Of a stretch of DNA of 64,000 bases, positions 3 to 63,869 are shown one piece after another (the stretch's first letter is position 1; the number at the start of each line of letters is the position of its first letter). The stretch lies in IMG/VR virus record IMGVR_UViG_3300035670_000139. One strand, 5' to 3'. Position numbers and translations under genes: made by a program. The notes under the pieces were generated by a model. That model searched no databases, was not told where the DNA came from, and saw only the letters and a list, made by a program, of their open reading frames with translations. The stretch comes from a virus (lineage: Duplodnaviria; Heunggongvirae; Uroviricota; Caudoviricetes).

Positions 3-1343
3 AATAAAAAAAAGTATTTAGAGAAGTTTGATATTTTACTTACTAGAAAAGAAAACTCTCTAGCAAGAATGCAAAATTATATTGAATGCCCTGATAAAAA
101 AATATATACAAAACATTTTATTAAGCGTAATGTATTATTAAATAATGTAAAGCACAATATTATTACATTGCCAAGAAATACAAAATATTACATTATTGAA
201 CAAAGATTACATCCAAGTGATTTAACGGCTTTTGTGTTAAATAAATTAAAAAACACAAAAGATAGTGATGGTAATCATGTAAAATATGTGTTATTAACAT
301 TTCCTTACGAAGTAGTAAATAATCCTTTAACTTTTCTAATTTACAAATTAAAAAAAGCCGTTTTTTATGAAGATGATAAGCCTCAATTTTTTACTTACAT
401 TGAAGATATTAAAAATATTACAAAACAACCTGGAACTTTTGAACAACCAAATTTTATAGATGATAGATTTACCATAGGAACAAGATTAGAAGTTTTAGGC
501 CCTAAGGGTATTCATGGTAGTTTATATCAAACAGAGTATTTATGCAACCCTGTATTAGAGACAAACAAACTAATTGACTATGAGCACTTTGGAGCTTATG
601 ACCCTAAATTATTTAGTGGGAATAATTTAGATAAAGCAGATAGAAAAACGACATGTTTTTTTATTACAACAGACTTTGCTTTAAGTGATTACAAGAAATC
701 AGATTCATCTGTTTTTTGTTTATGGGCTGTAACTGATAATAAACATAATAAAGATAAATATTTTAAAGACCCTAAATTATATTTAATTAATGCTAAAGTT
801 GCTAAAATTAATGAATCAGGGGCTTTAGTTAGTGAATTAATTGATTTTTACAAATCATGTGAATTATTGATACATAATAAAAAGTATTTTTCTTTAGTAG
901 CTAACAGAGCTATTAAACATGTATTAGCAGAAAAAAATGGTATTAACGCTACAATGTATAGACAATTAGAAGCAAACGCATACTTAGGAAGTAGGATGTA
1001 TATTGCAAAGTTTAGAAATAAATCTAAAAAAGATAGGTTATCTATTGCCACTGCTGCTATAGGTGATAGGATTAAACACTCTGTGTTTTTACCAAAAGAT
1101 TATTGCACTGATGTTTTTGGTAATGATTTACAAAAGATTTTAGACACATTATATTATGAATGTCTTGATTTTAATGTGACAAATAATTCACACGATGATA
1201 TTTTAGATAATGTCATAGATGCTGTAAATTATGTATTTAGTTATGATAAAGATATACATAGTCGTAGAGAAGGTTTAACAGAAGAGGATGCGTTAAGGCA
1301 ACTTGAAAGACTTAGGTTAGAAAATGAAGAAAATTCATATTAA
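3..1343 (+). CDS. terL: Large terminase subunit (TerL), C-terminal part; gene continues upstream of the window
   Basis: The reading frame is open from the window edge (NKKKYLEKFDILL...), so the true start lies upstream; the ORF track's first Met is at 69. The C-terminal half has an RNase-H-like terminase nuclease signature (TTCFFITTDFALSDYKKSDSSVFCLWAV = hhhhD.A...D...hhhh). It sits at the head of a head-morphogenesis module. Confidence 0.55.
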   Translation, partial: NKKKYLEKFDILLTRKENSLARMQNYIECPDKKIYTKHFIKRNVLLNNVKHNIITLPRNTKYYIIEQRLHPSDLTAFVLNKLKNTKDSDGNHVKYVLLTFPYEVVNNPLTFLIYKLKKAVFYEDDKPQFFTYIEDIKNITKQPGTFEQPNFIDDRFTIGTRLEVLGPKGIHGSLYQTEYLCNPVLETNKLIDYEHFGAYDPKLFSGNNLDKADRKTTCFFITTDFALSDYKKSDSSVFCLWAVTDNKHNKDKYFKDPKLYLINAKVAKINESGALVSELIDFYKSCELLIHNKKYFSLVANRAIKHVLAEKNGINATMYRQLEANAYLGSRMYIAKFRNKSKKDRLSIATAAIGDRIKHSVFLPKDYCTDVFGNDLQKILDTLYYECLDFNVTNNSHDDILDNVIDAVNYVFSYDKDIHSRREGLTEEDALRQLERLRLENEENSY

Positions 1344-4358: not shown

Positions 4359-5462
4359 ATGGTAAATACTATAGCAACGGATAATAAGCCTTTAGAAGGC
4401 AAGATTACAAGCTATATTTCGGTTTTTAACATTAGAGATGTAAAAGGCGATATTGTTACAGACACGGCTTTTGATAGCACTTGGTCGTATTTACAAAATA
4501 GAATCGCCACAGGTAAAATGTATGTTCATTGGAACCATTATAATAATGATAATTATATTAGCAATATTGGCGTTATTATTGCAATTATAAAAAATGCAAG
4601 AGGTTTAGTAGCAACAATTCAATTAAATGAAAAAGGTAAATCTATAATGCCTTTATTATATATGAAATATAATGCTAAACAATTGTTTAGTTCCATAGAA
4701 TTTATGCTATCACAAAATGCAAAAACACAAAACATTAATAATACTAGATATATCATAGACGGTATTTTATTAGAAGGTATTGCATTATTAACAGATCCAG
4801 CTAACAAACAGGCTACAGTATTGCAATTTAAAAATGATAAAAATAATATTGAAACTATTTGTAATCAAAATCCTATGATGGAGTATAAATCTGATAATGA
4901 AATTGAAATTAATGTAAATATTAATAGCCCTAAAGAAGAGGAGACAAATTGCGAAACTGATGTTAGTGAAGAAAATAATGTTAGTGAAGATACTATGGAT
5001 GAAATTGATGTAAATCAACAAAATTTTGATGAAACTATTAGATGTCTACAACAATCTAAAATTTTGATTAAAAATAGTAGTAATATTTCTGAGGAAGAAA
5101 AAGGTTTATATATTAATCGTGTTAATAGACTTAGAAAAAATTTAACAAGAACAATTGAACCAGATATTGAAGAAAAAGGATATGGAAAAAAGAAAATGCT
5201 TACAAAAAGCTGTGGTAATAAGAAAAAAATGCTACAAAAATCTGCATTATCAGCACTTGAAACAAAAAGTGCAAAAAATATTAAAAAAAATCTTGACAAA
5301 CAAAATAATGTATGTCAAACTTTAAATACTAGTGCATCGTTGCTATCTGCAACAGATGCCAGTAATGCCGACAGCGGGCATACCGCTGTACCTTCTAGCA
5401 GTAGAGACGCTGTATTGAAAGTTCACCCATTAACTGCACTTTCAAAATTTTATAAAAAATAA
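4359..5462 (+). CDS. Prohead maturation protease (HK97/U35 family) with an acidic coiled-coil scaffold-like C-terminal half
   Basis: N-terminus EGKITSYISVFNIRDVKGDIVTDTAFDS matches the HK97 prohead protease signature (GYASVFN..D..GD.I..GAF). The C-terminal 150 aa is acidic and coiled-coil (EEETNCETDVSEENNVSED...). The major capsid candidate lies immediately downstream. Confidence 0.6.
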   Translation: MVNTIATDNKPLEGKITSYISVFNIRDVKGDIVTDTAFDSTWSYLQNRIATGKMYVHWNHYNNDNYISNIGVIIAIIKNARGLVATIQLNEKGKSIMPLLYMKYNAKQLFSSIEFMLSQNAKTQNINNTRYIIDGILLEGIALLTDPANKQATVLQFKNDKNNIETICNQNPMMEYKSDNEIEINVNINSPKEEETNCETDVSEENNVSEDTMDEIDVNQQNFDETIRCLQQSKILIKNSSNISEEEKGLYINRVNRLRKNLTRTIEPDIEEKGYGKKKMLTKSCGNKKKMLQKSALSALETKSAKNIKKNLDKQNNVCQTLNTSASLLSATDASNADSGHTAVPSSSRDAVLKVHPLTALSKFYKK

Positions 5463-35722: not shown

Positions 35723-35798
35723 TGGCTCCCTGAGTAGGACTCGAACCTACGACCAAGTGATTAACAGTCACTTGCTCTACCAACTGAGCTATCAGGGA
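35723..35798 (-). tRNA. tRNA-Asn (anticodon GTT)
   Basis: Minus-strand sequence TCCCTGATAGCTCAGTTGGTAGAGCAAGTGACTGTTAATCACTTGGTCGTAGGTTCGAGTCCTACTCAGGGAGCCA. Acceptor stem TCCCTGA/TCAGGGA, D-arm GCTC/GAGC, anticodon loop CTGTTAA, T-arm GTAGG-TTCGAGT-CCTAC, encoded CCA. Confidence 0.8.
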
Positions 35799-35884
35799 AT
35801 AAAACACTTCTACAAAAAAGTGATTAAAGTTTAATTTGCATTTTGTAAAATGTCAAGTGTTTTTCAAAATATTTTAAAAAGTGC

Positions 35885-53696: not shown

Positions 53697-54011
53697 TCAA
53701 GAAGTATAGTAGTAATCATAACAGTAACTACCATAATAGTCACTACTTTTATTTTCAATATCAAACAATGGTAATTTTTTTTGTTTCATAAATTTATTTG
53801 CTTTTTGTATTGTTTTAATATCTGTTTTTAATGGTCTAAACATGTGTAATGTATTACTATCATCATCGCATATTGTAGCCCAAGGCGATACTTGTTTTGC
53901 GTGAATATGTAATCTATATGGTGGTTTATTATATTTATGGTATGTTGGTTTCTTGTAATAATTAAGAATTTTTTGTAAAAGTTTCATATAAAAATAATAA
54001 AAACTAACCAA
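53697..54011 (-). CDS. Paralog family B, copy 2 (104 aa, diverged)
   Basis: Shares the N-terminal YMKLLQKILNYY with B1. Confidence 0.4.
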   Translation of the reverse strand: MVSFYYFYMKLLQKILNYYKKPTYHKYNKPPYRLHIHAKQVSPWATICDDDSNTLHMFRPLKTDIKTIQKANKFMKQKKLPLFDIENKSSDYYGSYCYDYYYTS

Positions 54012-54576
54012 TTAATTTACTTATATTTTCCCAAACTTGTGAAGTTTGCTCGTGAAGTGGTTTTACGATGTCAAAATACCAATATATCATTTCTTCATCT
54101 TCATCTCCATCTTCTTGTTCTAAATATTTAATTATTTCTATACAAATACAATGATTGTCCAAGCGTTTTTTTTCGGGTAATATACATGTGTTTTTAACTG
54201 CAATATCTATATCTTGTATTGTAATTTTATTATCATTTTTAAGGTTTGATAACAAAAGTAAAATATCTTCAAGAGTTATTGGTCTGCCAAGAATTTCAAA
54301 ATTATATTCATATTGCCAATCGTAAGGTTCGTTTTGGTCTTGATATGTAAAATCAGTACATCTATAATAGTCTTTTCTTGAGGGCGTATGCCTTGTAAGT
54401 GTATTGTCAGCAATATTAAGACCATATATATTTGCTTTGGCATTATAAAACAAACAACCATCTTGATGAGCCTCCATCTTTAAAGCCTCCTCCAAAGATT
54501 TTACCTCAGGATGTCTATTCATCATAACCTTTTCCCATATTTTTTTGTAATGCGGGTTTTCTAGTGCTTTTTGCAT
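54004..54576 (-). CDS. Hypothetical protein, first gene of the minus-strand operon
   Basis: 190-aa ORF with an acidic C-terminal stretch (EQEDGDEDEE). Confidence 0.45.
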   Translation of the reverse strand: MQKALENPHYKKIWEKVMMNRHPEVKSLEEALKMEAHQDGCLFYNAKANIYGLNIADNTLTRHTPSRKDYYRCTDFTYQDQNEPYDWQYEYNFEILGRPITLEDILLLLSNLKNDNKITIQDIDIAVKNTCILPEKKRLDNHCICIEIIKYLEQEDGDEDEEMIYWYFDIVKPLHEQTSQVWENISKLIG

Positions 54577-54593
54577 ATAATCAAAATTACAAA

Positions 54594-54693
54594 TGGCGTC
54601 CGTTCTTTGACTTCATTGTTTTATTACCAGTAAAACAGTTAAAGGTTGTGATTACACAAGAAGAACGGACATAGAACTTTAACTTTTACTGGT
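54594..54693 (-). promoter_or_regulatory. Structured 5' leader (10-bp stem GTCCGTTCTT/AAGAACGGAC enclosing 53 nt; alternative 10-bp pairing ACCAGTAAAA/TTTTACTGGT)
   Basis: Stem halves at 54598-54607 and 54661-54670. The alternative pairing is 54626-54635 with 54684-54693, which cannot form at the same time as the first stem. It lies between the predicted transcription start and the ATG at 54576. Confidence 0.35.
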
Positions 54694-54699
54694 GATTAA

Positions 54700-54728
54700 A
54701 TTGTAAAGGGTTGTATTTCAAAAGTCAA
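54700..54728 (-). promoter_or_regulatory. Sigma70-like promoter (minus strand): TTGACT, 17-nt spacer, TACAAT
   Basis: The reverse complement of 54723-54728 is TTGACT; the reverse complement of 54700-54705 is TACAAT. The upstream sequence AAATAATCTTTTT is shared with the minus-strand promoter at 55548-55576. Confidence 0.5.
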
Positions 54729-54828
54729 GTAAAAAGATTATTTTTTTTGTTAAAATGGTTGATTAGTCAAATCCATTGCTGTCTCAGTCCAAATTTTAAA
54801 GCTTTCCAAAGCTTGGTGAAATAACATA

Positions 54829-55503
54829 TTATTTTGCATTTAAAACACTACCAACAGGATACACTTCTTTATTTTTAATTAACACAAGGTCTGTTTGTGG
54901 ATTAATACCAAACCATCTAACAAGCACACCAGAGAATAAGTCGTATCTTAAAGCATTTAATTGTTGCAATTTAGTATAATATTCCTCTCCATATTGAGAG
55001 TTTGCTATCTCTAATAACTCGTGTGCTAAAATATTTTGTCTATCTATTAACGCTTCAAGATTTTTTAATTTTTCACCACTTCCTCTTTCAATATCCCCTA
55101 ACCCATTAAAACCATTAACATTTTGAGACAATGGTGCAGAGTAAATTGATATTCCGTTTAAATTTTCAACTTTAACTTGAACTTGATATTTATCAGCTAC
55201 TTTGTTGATTAGTGCCTCAGTTTTTAATAATTCTCTTTTAGCATTATTATATTTTGCTACATTGATTGATATAGGTTTCATATAGGTAACCTCAGTAATT
55301 AATGTGTTATATTTGTTAATTGATGGTAATATGGAATCAGTTAAGCTCACGTGTTGAAAAAGCATTTGTATTATAAAAAACACTCCACAAAGCATTCCAA
55401 AACCTATTGAGGAATCAGAACCTTGTTTTTCTTTTTTTATTGTTAATGTTAAACATACTGTAGATATAATTAGGAACACACTGGTAATCAAAAGATAAAA
55501 CAT
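54829..55503 (-). CDS. Membrane-anchored coiled-coil protein
   Basis: N-terminal TM helices plus a coiled-coil region. 224 aa. Confidence 0.45.
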   Translation of the reverse strand: MFYLLITSVFLIISTVCLTLTIKKEKQGSDSSIGFGMLCGVFFIIQMLFQHVSLTDSILPSINKYNTLITEVTYMKPISINVAKYNNAKRELLKTEALINKVADKYQVQVKVENLNGISIYSAPLSQNVNGFNGLGDIERGSGEKLKNLEALIDRQNILAHELLEIANSQYGEEYYTKLQQLNALRYDLFSGVLVRWFGINPQTDLVLIKNKEVYPVGSVLNAK

Positions 55504-59175: not shown

Positions 59176-60048
59176 TTAAAAATCCCAACGAGGATCTACC
59201 TCTGTATCATTTTGACGAAGCTCTTGTATCCGTTTTTCACGCAAAGCATCTTGTCGCTTATCTTCCATTGCTTTATACTTAGGTTTTTGCATTTCTTGTG
59301 TTTTTAATCCATTCCAGCTATCAAATGATTGAAAGTTATTTAACCAAGTTGTGAAATCTCCACGAACATGTCTTCCTTCACCATCCCAAGTGAGTTTAGT
59401 AATTTCAATATATTCAAAATAAACTTTACAAGATTGTTGTATCTGCTCTGCATCATAGTCTTTTAGAACTTTGTTCCAAGACTGATATGCTTTTGTCATT
59501 TCTTGAGTTTCTTTATGCTCTGTTGGGAATTGCTTCAAAGCTCCGATTTGCATTTTATAAAAATAAAAGGTATCAAGAAACTCTTTGTCGGCAAGAGGAC
59601 TTTTTTTGTTTATTTTTTTAATAATCTCAGTATTGTTATTCTTAATATTATTATTATCAGTATTACTTATATATAGACTGCTATTTTCCATATATGGATT
59701 TTCCCTATGTGGTTTTTCATCGTGTGGTTTTTCCGTAGCAGGATATTCTATTTGCGGTTCATCGTATATTATGTATTCCGTTCCAATAAATTTACCATCT
59801 TCTCCCCTGATTTTTACCTTTGTTAAAAATCCACTTTCTAATAACTCTTTAATTGCACTATCAAAAGCATCTATACCTTCTTTTAACTCGTTTAAAATGA
59901 CTGCTTTTTTAAAAATCCAATTGTCTGGCTTAGATAGTAAATAAGTGCATAAACCTTTAGCTTTTAAAGATAAGTCTTTACATTCTAAAATTGCATTTGG
60001 AATTTGAGTAAAACAATTTTTAAACCTTCTTTTAATTGTTTGTTGCAT
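59176..60048 (-). CDS. Replication initiator / replisome-organiser-like protein (N-terminal winged-helix)
   Basis: N-terminal FTQIPNAILECKDLSLKAKGLCTYLLSKPDNWIF resembles phage replication-initiator N-terminal HTH domains. The central region has short direct repeats (PHDEKPHRENP; DNA TGTGGTTTTTC x2). Confidence 0.35.
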   Translation of the reverse strand: MQQTIKRRFKNCFTQIPNAILECKDLSLKAKGLCTYLLSKPDNWIFKKAVILNELKEGIDAFDSAIKELLESGFLTKVKIRGEDGKFIGTEYIIYDEPQIEYPATEKPHDEKPHRENPYMENSSLYISNTDNNNIKNNNTEIIKKINKKSPLADKEFLDTFYFYKMQIGALKQFPTEHKETQEMTKAYQSWNKVLKDYDAEQIQQSCKVYFEYIEITKLTWDGEGRHVRGDFTTWLNNFQSFDSWNGLKTQEMQKPKYKAMEDKRQDALREKRIQELRQNDTEVDPRWDF

Positions 60049-60517
60049 AGATTTTGTGATTAATCTCGGATAATTGGTGCCCCCTCTTTTTTAGGTAATA
60101 TTACGCCAATAATTTTACTATGTTGCAAGTTTGAATTGCAAGAAAAAAGAGAGGACATAAAAACATAAGCAAATTTATTGGCAATTAAAGTTTGCTAACT
60201 TCTTTTACAGATGTCAAGAGTTTTTTAAACTAAAAAATACTTCACAACCATTTTGTTGACATGCCCAAAATGGTCTAACTTACAATTTTGCCCGCATGGG
60301 AAAAATAGCGACCAGCATTCAATTTGAGTCCGTGACATTTTGTCACGACCTGATTTTAAGTATTGTAGTTTGTCTAATTTACCATTTTACTGATGTCGGT
60401 AAAATGGTCGGAAGCCCTAGTTCACTAAGCTTGAGTTGTTTCCAAAATGGAAATAACTGAAATTCACCAAAAGGGAGGTGACAATTTGTCCCCATCCTTC
60501 TGCAAAATTTAAAATTT

Positions 60518-60547
60518 TTTAAAGGTAGCGAATTCGCTACCTTTAAA
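60518..60547. repeat. 30-bp perfect palindrome TTTAAAGGTAGCGAATTCGCTACCTTTAAA
   Basis: Exact reverse-complement symmetry centred on GAATTC. It lies in the GC-enriched noncoding tract 60050-60600. Confidence 0.9.
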
Positions 60548-60594
60548 CATTTAGTAATTACAAATTTAAACAAAGATATTGTTATTATTAAAAC

Positions 60595-61155
60595 TTACTT
60601 CGCAAATATAAGATATATTTTTGAATAATAATTTTTAATGCTTTTTTTAATTTTTAATAATTTCTTAGATAACGGTTCTTTGTAATAATTTTTAACAAAA
60701 TGCCAAATCAACGGATATGTTTCTTTTACAAATTTACCACAAATTTTAATATCAATATCTTCTAAGGTTTTAATGTTATCAGTATTTGAAATTTTTAAGT
60801 GTTCTTTTGCAAAAGTTGTGATACATCCATCATATATCTTTTTTACAAACAGAGATTCTATTGTCTTTAATCTTGTATCTTGTAATGTTTTAAATAAATA
60901 TACCATAACAGTTTTGTCAATTAAATTTGCTTTTGATAAAAAGCCTATTTCGTCAATTCTTTGCCAAAATTTATATATTTCTTTGTTTAATTCATAAAGA
61001 TTATCGGCTTTAGTTTTTTCATCCAGTTCTTTAAGTTCACTAATTTTACAAAGAGGTATAATATTAGCTAAAATGTTCTCAATATCGTGTTTAATTTTAA
61101 TGGACTCCTTTACAATCAAGTCTTTTCTTGAAAATGGTGTAGATGTTTGATACAT
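60595..61155 (-). CDS. Hypothetical protein downstream of the Panacea-domain gene (candidate toxin partner)
   Basis: 186-aa ORF, 35 nt downstream of the DUF4065 gene on the same strand. Confidence 0.4.
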   Translation of the reverse strand: MYQTSTPFSRKDLIVKESIKIKHDIENILANIIPLCKISELKELDEKTKADNLYELNKEIYKFWQRIDEIGFLSKANLIDKTVMVYLFKTLQDTRLKTIESLFVKKIYDGCITTFAKEHLKISNTDNIKTLEDIDIKICGKFVKETYPLIWHFVKNYYKEPLSKKLLKIKKSIKNYYSKIYLIFAK

Positions 61156-61190
61156 ATTTAGATTGATTAATTTTGAAATTAATTAAAATC

Positions 61191-61862
61191 TTACAAATGA
61201 TTTGTTGTTTTGTCAAGATTTAATTGCAACTCAAGATATTTAGTAATGTATTTTTTACGGATTTCTTCTGCTTTTGCGTAAATCTTGTCTATATCAAGAC
61301 CAAACAAATCTTCTTTTTTCAACTTATCAAAATAGCCTTTTATTAAAAAACTTTCAATTTTACATCCAAAAGTATTGTATTTATCGCAGACAAATTTCCA
61401 AGGTGAGCCATCTTGATGCGACCAATTACTTAATTCTAAAGCTTTTTTCTTTGGAATGTTGCTGGCAATAAACTCTTGCAAGATGTACTTCATTATCTCC
61501 TCATCTCTTTGCCTGGATATACTCTTGCCTTCTTTTACTTCGTAAAATGGTTTGTAGTTCACGCTAAAAGCTTCGGTAGTTAATTGAGAATAGTTTTGGT
61601 AAATATTTTTAAAAACAGGTCCATATGGCCAAGCTTCAGGTAGTTCGTCAAACAGAGATAGAACAACTTTTCCTTCATTGTTTAACACCGATGTTTTTGG
61701 TATCATGTCAACCTTTAAAGCAACTCCCATTACTATATACATTATTTTTTGCAATTTTGTGTTGCTAAGCTCAACATTTTTACCTTTTGGTGTATTTTCA
61801 TTACCAATATTGTATATATCCATCAAAAAAATTAGGTCTTTTGCTACATCTACGGCTTTCAT
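61191..61862 (-). CDS. Panacea-domain (DUF4065, SocA/PanA-like) antitoxin-type protein
   Basis: TKLQKIMYIVMGVALK...LFDELPEAWPYGPVFKNIYQNY matches the DUF4065 signature (KLQKLLYy..g.....lf.e.feAW.yGPVvp.vY). Confidence 0.55.
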   Translation of the reverse strand: MKAVDVAKDLIFLMDIYNIGNENTPKGKNVELSNTKLQKIMYIVMGVALKVDMIPKTSVLNNEGKVVLSLFDELPEAWPYGPVFKNIYQNYSQLTTEAFSVNYKPFYEVKEGKSISRQRDEEIMKYILQEFIASNIPKKKALELSNWSHQDGSPWKFVCDKYNTFGCKIESFLIKGYFDKLKKEDLFGLDIDKIYAKAEEIRKKYITKYLELQLNLDKTTNHL

Positions 61863-61991
61863 AGTATTTTACTAAGATTTACTTGTATTTTTCTCCGTTA
61901 CATTCCCAGTCCTAAACCCAAACGGCGGATGTGCCTGACCTGCAAAGGTAAAAAACTGTCTATAAATAACCATAAAAAACTATAAAAAAAC

Positions 61992-62050: not shown

Positions 62051-62644
62051 ATGGAATTAGTAACAATATCAAAAGCAAAAAAACTACTTGGAGTAACACC
62101 TCAAACAATGCGTAATTGGGATAAAAATGGCAAGATAAAGCCAGTTAAAAGAGCTAAAAATGGTTTTCGCTATTATAATCTATTAGATATACAAAATTTA
62201 GTAAAGCCAAAAAATAAAATGATTATAGGCTATTGTCGTGTATCTTCTAAAAAACAAGAAGATGATTTATGCAGACAAATTGAAAATGTAAAAACATTTA
62301 TGATAGCTAAAGGATATAGTTTTGAAATAATACAGGATATAGGCTCTGGAATTAACTATACTAAAAATGGCTTAAATGAATTAATCACTAAAGTTATTAA
62401 TGGTAATGTTGAGAAAGTTGTTATATTATATAAAGACAGATTGCTGCGTTTTGGATTTGAATTATTAGAAAGCATATTTCAAAAATATAATTGTAAAATT
62501 GAAATTATTGATAATACAGAAAAAACAGAGGAACAAGAATTAGTTGAGGATTTAATACAAATTGTGACAGTTTTTTCTTGTAAATTACAAGGCAAAAGAA
62601 GCAAAAAAACAAAAGCATTAATTAACGAGTTAAAAAATGATTAA
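62051..62644 (+). CDS. tnpA: IS607-type serine recombinase transposase (MerR-like HTH plus resolvase catalytic domain)
   Basis: N-terminal MerR-type HTH (AKKLLGVTPQTMRNWDKNGKIKP..NGFRYY), then catalytic IIGYCRVSSKKQEDDL (Y-x-R-V-S-x-x-x-Q). 197 aa. Confidence 0.8.
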   Translation: MELVTISKAKKLLGVTPQTMRNWDKNGKIKPVKRAKNGFRYYNLLDIQNLVKPKNKMIIGYCRVSSKKQEDDLCRQIENVKTFMIAKGYSFEIIQDIGSGINYTKNGLNELITKVINGNVEKVVILYKDRLLRFGFELLESIFQKYNCKIEIIDNTEKTEEQELVEDLIQIVTVFSCKLQGKRSKKTKALINELKND

Positions 62645-63869
62645 ATCCTTCAAAGTTCGTCTTGAACCAAACAATAAACAAAAATCTTTGTTGTTTGCAA
62701 ATGCAAGTGTTGCAAGATTTGCATACAATTGGACTTTAGAACAACAGCAACTCAATTACAAGAATGGTGGTAAGTTTATTAGTCATTTTGATTTACGCAA
62801 AAAATTAACCCAATTAAAACAAAAAGAACTAAGCTGGCTATACAACTATGATGTTGATATTGTAAAACAAGCAGTAAAAGATGCTTGCGATAGTTATATT
62901 AAATTCTTTAATAAAGGCTTTGGATTTCCAAGATTTAAAAGTAAAAGATTTTCAAAACCTAGTTTTTTTGTTGATAATTATAAAATCAAAATCTTTGAAA
63001 ATAGCATTAAAATTCCAAAACTTAAGTCAAACATAAAATTAAGTGAAAATGGATATATCCCATTGAATGTAAAATATTCTAACCCAAGAATTACTTTTGA
63101 TGGAGTAAATTGGTTTTTATCTGTTGGAGTTGATATTGAAAATGAAATACAAGAACTCACAAATGAAACACTTGGAATTGATGTAGGTTTAAAAGATGCT
63201 TTAATTAGAAGTGATGGAATTATACATAAAAATATCAATAAAACTAAAAAAATTAAAACATTAAGAAAAAAACATAATAAACTTAAAAAATCAATTAGTA
63301 GAAAATATGAAAGAAACAAAATTGGTAAAAAATTTATCAAAACTCAAAATATTAAAAAAGCTGAGTTAAAATCAAATAAACTTTACAAAAAGTTAAACGA
63401 TATACAAACTGACTATTTCAACAAAGTAGCCATTTCAATTGCGAGAACCAAGCCAAAAAAGATTGTTATGGAAAAGTTGAATATTGATGGGATGCGAAAG
63501 AATAAATGTCTTTCAAAAGCCTTTCAAGAAGCTAGTTTGCATAAATTCAAAACTAAAATTCAAAATAAATGTTTGGAGTTTGGGATTGAATTTATTGAGG
63601 CTGGAACATTTTTTCCATCCTCAAAAAGATGTAGTCATTGTGGAGCAATTAAAAAAGACTTGAAATTAAAAGATAGAGTTTTTAAATGCGATACATGCGA
63701 CTTTCAAATAGACAGGGACGAAAACGCAAGTCAAAATCTCAAACAATACCCTGAGTTACAGGGGAATTTAAGCCTTTGGAGTGCTAAATCAAAAGAAAGT
63801 AGTCGCAAGACAAAATCTGGCACCGAGAAGAAGGAAAAAAGCAAAAAACTTAATAGAGTAGCAATATGA
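62637..63869 (+). CDS. tnpB: TnpB (OMEGA RNA-guided nuclease)
   Basis: RuvC-I GIDVGLKDALIRSDG, zinc finger CSHCGAIKK...CDTCDFQ, and RuvC-III DRDENASQNL. 410 aa. Start overlaps tnpA by 8 nt. Confidence 0.85.
   Translation: MIKSFKVRLEPNNKQKSLLFANASVARFAYNWTLEQQQLNYKNGGKFISHFDLRKKLTQLKQKELSWLYNYDVDIVKQAVKDACDSYIKFFNKGFGFPRFKSKRFSKPSFFVDNYKIKIFENSIKIPKLKSNIKLSENGYIPLNVKYSNPRITFDGVNWFLSVGVDIENEIQELTNETLGIDVGLKDALIRSDGIIHKNINKTKKIKTLRKKHNKLKKSISRKYERNKIGKKFIKTQNIKKAELKSNKLYKKLNDIQTDYFNKVAISIARTKPKKIVMEKLNIDGMRKNKCLSKAFQEASLHKFKTKIQNKCLEFGIEFIEAGTFFPSSKRCSHCGAIKKDLKLKDRVFKCDTCDFQIDRDENASQNLKQYPELQGNLSLWSAKSKESSRKTKSGTEKKEKSKKLNRVAI

Follow-up and report, generated by a model that had tools for sequence, protein, structure and literature searches.

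Bacterial ribonuclease P (RNase P) makes sequence-specific contacts with U(-1), with A(-2) and with an RCCA sequence that pairs with the L15 loop (PMC4919922). Hairpin-like substrates that lack a T-loop are also cut by the bacterial enzyme, among them phi80 M3, P4 CI and P1/P7 C4 (PMC5499578; PMC5320573), of which C4 is excised from an operon leader by a cut on the 5' flank of the stem that closes it (PMC5320573). In pseudoknots with a 3' RCCA, RNase P cuts in loop 1, and U is favoured at position -1 (PMC12710915). The promoter-early stem-loop (PeSL) cassettes of T4-type phages combine a sigma70-like promoter with a stem-loop, occur several times per genome and flank insertions and replacements of accessory genes (PMC2839356). 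Here, we describe a promoter followed by a structured leader RNA in a 64,000-nucleotide stretch of the Caudoviricetes record IMGVR_UViG_3300035670_000139 (hereafter the window). The module occupies the part of a noncoding tract (60050-60600) that lies next to rep, an initiator-like gene. By analogy, its function resembles most closely that of phage leader RNAs processed by RNase P (C4, CI) and of the pseudoknot-plus-RCCA substrates, and its genome dynamics resemble most closely those of the PeSL cassettes.

We consider it highly probable that the module is a minus-strand promoter of the sigma70 type together with a conserved leader that is structured and acts in cis. All genes flanking the tract are on the minus strand, and the tract is therefore to be read mainly as minus-strand signals, that is, as the end of one unit and the start of the next. 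A sequence-only reading of the same DNA had proposed a structured noncoding RNA gene or a replication origin. A conserved folded RNA does exist, but it is located at 60075-60182 on the minus strand and is a cis-acting 5' leader, not a free-standing gene. The elements of the two copies in the window are given below, with lengths in nucleotides (nt).

60185-60229, minus strand: rep promoter, with an A-rich upstream element (60229-60220), a -35 hexamer TTGACA (60217-60212), a 17-nt spacer and a -10 hexamer CAAACT (60194-60189)
60075-60182, minus strand: structured leader RNA of about 108 nt, supported by covariation, energy tests and a covariance-model search
60182-60164, minus strand: helix A of the rep copy
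60163-60157, minus strand: linker L1, ending in UAU
60156-60143, minus strand: helix B, starting with G+1
60141-60123, minus strand: hairpin C
60122-60105, minus strand: A'
60104-60093, minus strand: linker D
60092-60079, minus strand: B'
60078-60075, minus strand: ACCA
60046-60074, minus strand: A/U-rich linker (60074-60049) and rep start codon ATG (60048-60046), without a Shine-Dalgarno sequence
54594-54728, minus strand: second promoter-plus-leader copy, ahead of the gene at 54004-54576 (minus strand)
54700-54728, minus strand: -35 (54728-54723) and -10 (54705-54700) hexamers of the second copy
54646-54693, minus strand: A (54693-54677), B (54670-54661) and C (54659-54646) of the second copy
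54594-54644, minus strand: A' (54644-54626), B' (54607-54598) and GCCA (54597-54594) of the second copy

Twelve distinct copies of six sequence types, including the two in the window, were identified among related metagenomic phage loci and contigs, which are referred to here by L-numbers. The further copies are in L004 (three), L006/L038, L025, L026 (two, divergent), L033, L036 and L040. The order of the parts is fixed: strand A, a U-rich linker ending in UAU, B with G as its first base, hairpin C, A', a linker, B' and R-CCA. In every copy the leader begins 4-6 nt 3' of the -10 hexamer, and the rep promoter is kept in all relatives.

The leader RNA forms a 5'-terminal helix A-A' of 17-20 base pairs (bp), a hairpin C and a pyrimidine/purine helix B-B' of 10-17 bp. 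The helix A sequences are wholly different between the types and cannot be aligned (GCCAAUAA..., ACCAGUAAAAG..., GCGAAGUUUAUUUUUACC, UUUGUUCGCAAG..., UUGCCAAACAAUUACUUUGC), and every copy has an A-A' duplex energy of -19 to -25 kcal/mol, as compared to -6 to -9 kcal/mol (standard deviation 2.0-2.4) in shuffled sequences, none of 1000 of which was as low in any case. In helix B-B', all ten inspected positions were paired in all ten sequences, and positions 2, 3, 5 and 6 vary with pairing kept, including compensatory swaps from C-G to U-A and from C-G to G-C. Six cells of this helix hold a G.U pair and none an A.C pair, which places the structure on the minus-strand (sense) RNA and not on the plus strand or the duplex DNA.

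The covariation was quantified in a seven-sequence MAFFT alignment of all three helices (A4) and in a model-based alignment of the 12 copies for helices B and C (A7). Paired cells amounted to 90.3% in A4 and to 95.6% in A7, against 46-54% and 51-59%, respectively, when the partners were slid. Both sides had changed in 18 cells in each alignment, against 3-8 (A4) and 0-2 (A7) in the slid controls. For neither alignment did any of 500 shuffles reach the observed percentage of pairing, the number of compensated cells or the covariation score. MAFFT misaligned helices A and C when applied to the 12 copies, and helix A was hence tested by its duplex energies and by the seven-sequence alignment. A covariance model built from the seven sequences retrieved the five unseen copies at 29-34 bits (E = 0.001-0.009) and found exactly two copies in the window. 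The same two were the only ones in the window to match a descriptor that requires RCCA after a helix of 9 bp or more, which matched 0-1 times in each of 20 shuffles.

Since the elements follow each other in the order A-B-C-A'-B', the long helices A-A' and B-B' cross, and the leader should either be an H-type pseudoknot or switch between two states. With one of the helices blocked, each of the two folds has an energy of -18 to -27.5 kcal/mol and the two lie within about 5 kcal/mol of each other in all 12 copies. L1 lengthens with helix B across the six types, from 6 to 10 nt for 10 to 17 bp, a relation that would fit the requirements of a pseudoknot, although six points are only suggestive. We also considered pairing of A' with D as a third conserved hairpin, and the segment between C and B' showed no significant fold.

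With regard to the promoter, the 19-mer TTTAAAAAACTCTTGACAT is also present in 18 unrelated IMG/VR phage contigs, mostly with a TATAAT-like hexamer 17 nt further on, and the occurrence of this combination in unrelated phages marks the 19-mer as a strong -35 region of a generic kind. The tRNA-Asn promoter and one other site have the same unusual -10 context, AAACTTTAAT. Three promoters in the window have the form TTGACA-N17-(C/T)AAACT-TTAA with the same spacing, at 60185-60217 (minus strand), about 35825-35857 (minus strand) and about 5292-5325 (plus strand). This trio, one of which drives tRNA-Asn, may represent a distinct promoter class of the phage. A generic sigma70 scan was uninformative in such AT-rich DNA, where it gave 127 promoter-like sites and 125 would be expected. 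The promoters in the window look sigma70-like (TTGACA) and not Bacteroidota-like, despite ORFs (open reading frames) that are free of Shine-Dalgarno sequences: none of the 50 long ORFs examined (at least 150 amino acids, aa) has one upstream, and the upstream regions are rich in A and T.

The invariant bases sit just outside helix B-B': UAU before G+1, the G+1:C pair, and R-CCA after the helix, with conservation stopping past the final A. UAU precedes G+1 in all 12 copies, at the end of an L1 that is 6-10 nt long, U-rich and predicted to be single-stranded. Likewise, G+1:C closes the 10-17-bp helix and is followed directly by ACCA or GCCA in 12 of 12 copies, as expected of an RNase P substrate. 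The flanks of the phage tRNA-Asn are alike (UUUUAU/UCCCUG...CAGGGA-G-CCA).

On balance, we favour the interpretation that the tract is a regulatory spacer between two leftward transcription units, with a promoter and a leader RNA that would be matured by RNase P. Transcription would start at, or a few bases from, helix A, and helix B-B' would mimic the acceptor end of a tRNA by means of the U-rich sequence ending in UAU, the G+1:C pair and the R-CCA. That RNase P is the factor that reads or processes the leader is a more tentative suggestion. From the invariant UAU/G...RCCA flanks and the RNase P literature we infer that the host enzyme would cut 5' of G60156 and, in the second copy, 5' of G54670. 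Such a cut would remove the triphosphate-bearing A strand and give the rep mRNA a defined 5'-monophosphate end that is buried in a helix. More speculatively, this processed end might set the stability or translation of the rep mRNA and insulate it from upstream read-through. It is also possible, and in our view more doubtful still, that the promoter-plus-pseudoknot cassette with its tRNA-acceptor-mimic helix recruits host RNase P, or another reader of CCA ends, for the maturation or regulation of early mRNAs in a host that makes no use of Shine-Dalgarno sequences, while the same cassette lets accessory genes recombine into the DNA upstream of rep. Taken by itself, the repeated module appears to serve as a recombination handle for the insertion of genes upstream of rep.

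The element is distinct from tRNAs and from described RNA families. At gathering thresholds, Rfam 15, whose families include tmRNA, RNase P RNA, group I and II introns, C4, riboswitches and RAGATH motifs, identified only tRNA-Asn (35726-35798) and RAGATH-18 (63773-63836) in the whole window. With E-values up to 10, the best Rfam match in 59900-60750 and 54540-54860 scored 20.8 bits against a threshold of 51, and five related loci gave no match. With ARAGORN, the tract likewise yielded no tRNA or tmRNA. A tRNA or tRNA-like structure was rejected as an explanation because the leader elements receive no score from the Rfam tRNA model or from ARAGORN, and so was a tRNA remnant, of which there is not even a weak tRNA match. 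For a target of the C4 kind, the interior of the element was compared with the next 130 nt, where it paired no better than shuffles (z = -1.35 to +1.3), and no trans targets of A' were found elsewhere in the window. With no complementary target for A', A-A' looks like a cis helix and not like an antisense-target pair. Taken together, the leader belongs to no curated family and is a structured phage 5' leader and a putative non-tRNA substrate of RNase P.

As with C4 (P1/P7) and CI (P4), the element belongs to the leader region of a phage operon and shares a transcript with the genes that follow. It measures about 77-82 nt and is closed by a long stem, the 5' side of which is the predicted RNase P site, and the internal A' is complementary to the upstream A in the same transcript. 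Like the hairpin-type substrates (PMC5499578; PMC5320573), it has no T-loop. Unlike C4, it has no sequence or profile similarity to the Rfam C4 family or to any other Rfam family, and unlike C4 and CI it has no complementary target near the start codon or elsewhere in the window and shows no sign of acting as an immunity factor. The topology S1-L1-S2-...-S1'-L3-S2'-RCCA is that of pseudoknotted RNase P substrates such as the tRNA-like structures of plant viruses and the biotin-aptamer pseudoknot with its GCCAC trailer, and the predicted cut also falls at the L1/S2 junction with U at position -1 (PMC12710915). However, the helices of the leader are far longer (17-20 and 10-17 bp) than in these substrates and there is an extra hairpin in loop 2. 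In contrast to the plant-virus structures, the leader is located at the 5' end of an mRNA and not at the 3' end of a genome, and its two helices may coexist or alternate.

The likeness to the PeSL cassettes lies in the combination of a strong sigma70-like promoter with a conserved stem-loop, in the presence of several copies and in a GmrSD_N gene situated between two of them in L004. The PeSL elements are simple terminator stem-loops, whereas the leader is about 108 nt long with three covarying helices and tRNA-end-like flanks, and the module occurs only twice in 64 kb. Across its copies it heads rep, a 190-aa ORF, the GmrSD_N gene and a GIY-YIG-like gene. Only 60049-60236 remains linked to rep across the relatives, with 93% identity in L004 and 79% in L006, and the DNA upstream of the module has been replaced, duplicated or invaded among the relatives. 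In L004 (488-1318), a GmrSD_N-only gene of 156 aa, corresponding to the N-terminal domain of a type IV restriction enzyme, is located between two module copies upstream of rep, and in L025 a GIY-YIG-like gene is found upstream of rep. A truncated duplicate of the N-terminal winged helix-turn-helix (wHTH) domain of Rep (103 aa) is situated directly upstream of the full rep in L006 (277-588), L038 (728-1039) and L027 (1-70), and here the module precedes the truncated copy. In L026 (268-645), a module of the type found at 54594-54728 (the 54k type) and one of the rep type are placed back to back and drive divergent genes, in a gene order that differs from that of the window.

Exact-protein look-ups showed that the tract is identical in three metagenomic contigs, and further contexts came from Rep homologues of 94%, 87%, 78%, 71% and 44% identity, the first being that of L004 and the last that of L025. 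BLASTN detected no match to the tract among 50,697 phage records, and a single-protein search for rep loci in IMG/VR found none. Two leader patterns gave chance matches or nothing in IMG/VR, and the only match to the leader in the genome collection was a chance one in a metagenome-assembled genome of Alistipes. Nothing credible was found with covariance model R1 and the helix-plus-RCCA descriptor at 80 loci (402 kb) of distant Rep homologues, where the best match (25.7 bits, E = 0.18) was rejected on inspection. The motif seems limited to a narrow lineage. A TTGACT-N17-TATAAA promoter in L025 (6636-6720) is followed by a possible H-type pseudoknot, GGTGAAAG-CCGTAAT-CTTTCACC ... ATTACGG, the sequence of which is unrelated to the leader motif.

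The distal part of the tract (60237-60594) has a different character and forms a variable mosaic of hairpins.

60518-60547, minus strand: T1, a 30-bp perfect palindrome with an A-tract, a GGTAGCG stem, an AATT loop and a U-tract, after the 186-aa gene at 60595-61155 (minus strand)
60473-60498, minus strand: T2, a terminator-like hairpin GGAUGGGGACAAAUUGUCACCUCC followed by CUUUUGG
60381-60408, no strand assigned: H3, the hairpin ACCATTTTAC-N8-GTAAAATGGT, a repeat copy of H5
60282-60380, minus strand: spacer block conserved in relatives, with hairpin H4 (60328-60350, GGUCGUGACAAAAUGUCACGGAC)
60240-60281, no strand assigned: H5 insertion (hairpin 60247-60275), which carries TTGACA; TACAAT at 60281-60286 straddles its right edge

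It was this part that had attracted attention in the sequence-only reading, and the palindrome, the hairpins and the local rise in GC content are real and beyond chance. The inverted repeats CGTGACA-TTT-TGTCACG (60331-60347) and ACCATTTTAC-N8-GTAAAATGGT are where they had been reported, as is the 30-bp palindrome, and the hairpin GGGAGGTGAC...GTCCCCATCC exists at 60473-60497, one base away from its reported position. The palindrome is the longest in the window and occurs once, with runners-up of 16 bp, and none of 100 shuffles matched its length. Folding of 60237-60594 gave z-scores of -5.95 (minus strand) and -7.08 (plus strand) relative to dinucleotide shuffles, none of 100 being as good. 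The proposed GC enrichment holds locally, with 39.1% GC in 60240-60500 (99.4th percentile of windows of the same size), but is diluted over the full 60050-60600 (31.9%, 86th percentile); the other intergenic spacers in the window have 17.5-29.4% GC. No credible ORF had been seen here, and the 54-aa and 64-aa ORFs indeed have no Pfam match. Nor is there a frameshift-corrected ORF across the tract or any sign that its DNA is derived from the host.

The most conspicuous hairpins, which lie within 60331-60547, nevertheless belong to the variable portion of the tract, which is the least conserved. T1 is contained in an insertion of about 44 nt relative to L004, with AAGG on its flanks, and looks like a bidirectional terminator as judged from its shape and position only. 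The 61 nt around T2 share 82% identity with L004 117-177, and the stem is perfectly paired in L004 (GGGGACAAATTGTCCCC). The H3 segment stands in place of a small-ORF cassette of about 200 nt in L004 and L038. This small conserved ORF on the opposite strand (MIGHIKNIYNDGELIENSVCKE...KKYNVKHYNL), from which the window is free, fills the spacer at 27-326 (minus strand) in L004 and at 130-303 (minus strand) in L038, and is followed by a strong hairpin (GAGTTTCTCGAAAAAATCGAGAAACTC). The block 60282-60380 is 91% identical to L004 and 85-88% identical to L038 and L036, with a partial tandem duplicate in L038. In L025, the H4 hairpin comes directly after a SocA/Panacea gene, with its stem sequence altered and its pairing kept. 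The H5 insertion of about 35 nt is missing in L004, L036 and L038, which have about 12 nt instead. As judged from the position and shape of the hairpins only, the distal part appears to consist of terminator or insulator hairpins (T1, T2, H4) for the upstream toxin-antitoxin-like genes, along with repeat-hairpin insertions (H3, H5).

Several points weigh against our interpretation of the spacer. The family is narrow and the covariation would rest on six independent sequence types only, and kinship among sequences can beat shuffle controls even where there is no structural constraint. The transcription start site, the expressed strand and the cleavage are all deduced from the DNA sequence, and the -10 hexamer of the rep copy, CAAACT, is weak. 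A helix of 10-17 bp exceeds the 7-bp acceptor stem of a tRNA, there is no T-arm, and the tRNA model and ARAGORN are blind to the elements. In the distal part, the stems are present but T1, T2 and H4 have weak canonical terminator features, with U-tracts that are short or displaced (UUU then A's in T1, CUUUU in T2, none on the minus strand in H4), and a consensus terminator scan of the region gave five sites against 6.1 expected, which is the chance level. Furthermore, the invariant UAUG could be a start codon, since a short ORF begins there in every copy, although neither its length (6-39 aa or more) nor its frame is conserved.

The last point leads to one of the alternatives, a regulatory leader peptide that begins at the invariant AUG and whose translation would remodel the leader by attenuation or coupling. 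ORFs of the rep type end 3-11 nt before the rep AUG; however, the peptide has only 6 aa in the 54k type and up to 39 aa or more in others, the N-terminal resemblance is due to the pyrimidine-rich helix strand, and the invariant RCCA would have no explanation, so that we give this idea very little credence. A more substantial alternative, albeit an unlikely one, is that the leader works without RNase P, as an operator for a phage or host RNA-binding protein or as a ligand- or temperature-sensitive bistable switch on translation. T4 gene 32 mRNA, for example, has a 5' pseudoknot that is involved in translation control. The crossing helices with near-isoenergetic folds in all 12 copies, the invariant single-stranded bases that could contact a protein, the unstructured A/U-rich linker leading to start codons free of Shine-Dalgarno sequences, and the position before unrelated genes (rep, the 190-aa ORF, GmrSD_N, GIY-YIG-like), which fits a shared regulator, would all agree with such a role. 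What it leaves unexplained is the exact match of UAU/G...RCCA to the flanks of the phage tRNA; moreover, the downstream start codon is sequestered by neither helix, and neither fold has a terminator after it. The module could also act as DNA, either as a folded single-strand recombination site similar to integron attC or as a single-strand initiation signal that mobilises cassettes. As in attC sites, the structure is kept while the sequence is not, and two copies bracket the inserted GmrSD_N gene in L004. Yet each copy is fixed 4-6 nt downstream of a -35/-10 promoter, the presence of G.U without A.C indicates an RNA of one strand, and no integron-type integrase is nearby, the sole recombinase belonging to an IS607-like unit, all of which makes a role at the DNA level hardly credible.

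Two further alternatives concern the distal part. One is a free-standing small RNA of about 65 nt on the plus strand, running from the promoter-like TTGACA (60256-60261) and TACAAT (60281-60286), to which the sequence-only reading had pointed, to the terminator-like hairpin with a T-run at 60331-60347. The hexamers do exist, a scan picks out 60331-60347, with ACCTGATTTT after it, as a terminator-like site of the plus strand, and the block 60282-60380 is conserved. However, the hexamers are 19 nt apart and received no call in the sigma70 scan, the element is located in the insertion that L004, L036 and L038 lack, and no Rfam family matches; the hairpin in L025, which pairs despite its changed sequence right after the end of a gene, behaves as a gene-end hairpin would. 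A small RNA of this kind is very improbable. The other is the replication origin, with the palindrome and hairpins as elements for initiator binding or unwinding, which has a low probability only slightly above that of the small RNA. The tract adjoins a DnaD/replication-initiator-like wHTH gene, its inverted repeats are unusually dense, and CCATTTT/AAAATGG occurs five times within about 200 nt (60247-60450) as compared to 53 times in the whole 64-kb window, a clustering that may have a protein-binding role. On the other hand, four of the five occurrences simply make up the arms of one hairpin that is present twice, close relatives lack the palindrome and H5, and the region is reshuffled where rep is 78-94% identical. 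The core of the tract is GC-enriched rather than AT-rich and has no tandem iterons, and GC skew merely tracks gene orientation. At least three direct repeats, a neighbouring AT-rich region for unwinding and conservation beside the initiator gene, which characterise iteron-type origins, are lacking in the tract, and all three are found inside rep:

59600-59757, no strand assigned: five tandem 15-bp repeats (59683-59757) beside a stretch of 17% GC (59600-59682), inside rep

The TGTGGTTTTTC repeats previously seen in this gene are real and form part of the five tandem units, which encode PxxE(K/N) pentapeptides. The same layout of repeats and AT-rich sequence, with related repeat units, is present in the 44%-identical rep of L025 (3815-3975), and the linker of Rep is repetitive in several homologues. 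The segment 59600-59757 is likely a better origin candidate than the tract. In phage lambda, the origin (ori-lambda) is located inside the initiator gene O. The rep iterons similarly encode a repetitive linker between the N-terminal DNA-binding domain and the C-terminal domain, with an adjacent AT-rich stretch, whereas Rep is of the DnaD/wHTH type and not a homologue of lambda O, and its candidate origin is proposed from sequence alone.

If RNase P does cut the leader, the phage would provide a natural example of tRNA-end mimicry in the processing of its own protein-coding mRNAs, and a family unrelated in sequence would be added to the few known phage substrates of RNase P (C4, CI, M3). The three-helix motif with its invariant flanks provides a compact test case for the recognition of pseudoknotted or long-helix substrates by RNase P, and it also bears on mRNA maturation in hosts without Shine-Dalgarno sequences. 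For annotation, the tract changes from an origin or noncoding RNA gene to a promoter with a cis-acting leader, the likely real origin is placed inside rep, and the spacer stands out as a hot spot where defence-type accessory genes are inserted.

The phage is AT-rich, with a mean GC content of 28.5% in the window, and poorly characterised. Lysozyme, ribonucleotide reductase, a NAMPT-like enzyme and a DNA methyltransferase are among the proteins encoded in the window. Many of the large ORFs in the window have no match in PHROG, and a tblastn search with a 628-aa protein against phages gave no match. The genes around the tract are the following.

59176-60048, minus strand: rep, the initiator-like gene downstream of the tract
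60595-61155, minus strand: 186-aa gene without a family match
61191-61862, minus strand: SocA/Panacea-domain gene of 223 aa, assigned by Pfam

The N-terminal domain of Rep matches DnaD-like and replication-initiation families (wHTH), and the protein also matches phage proteins annotated as replication proteins. The 223-aa protein barely exceeds the Pfam threshold for the Panacea domain (26.0 versus 25.7 bits). A TTGACA-N17-TAAGAT promoter (61188-61216, minus strand) precedes the 186-aa gene, and because of this separate promoter the toxin-antitoxin-like pair may not be a single operon. Further upstream, an IS607-like unit is located at 62051-63869 (plus strand), in which the gene for a serine recombinase with a MerR-type helix-turn-helix (62051-62644) overlaps the TnpB gene (62637-63869). 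The RAGATH-18 match at 63773-63836 (63.9 bits) is situated within the 3' end of tnpB. The L001 contig, which is otherwise identical, stops at window position 61970, shortly before this unit.

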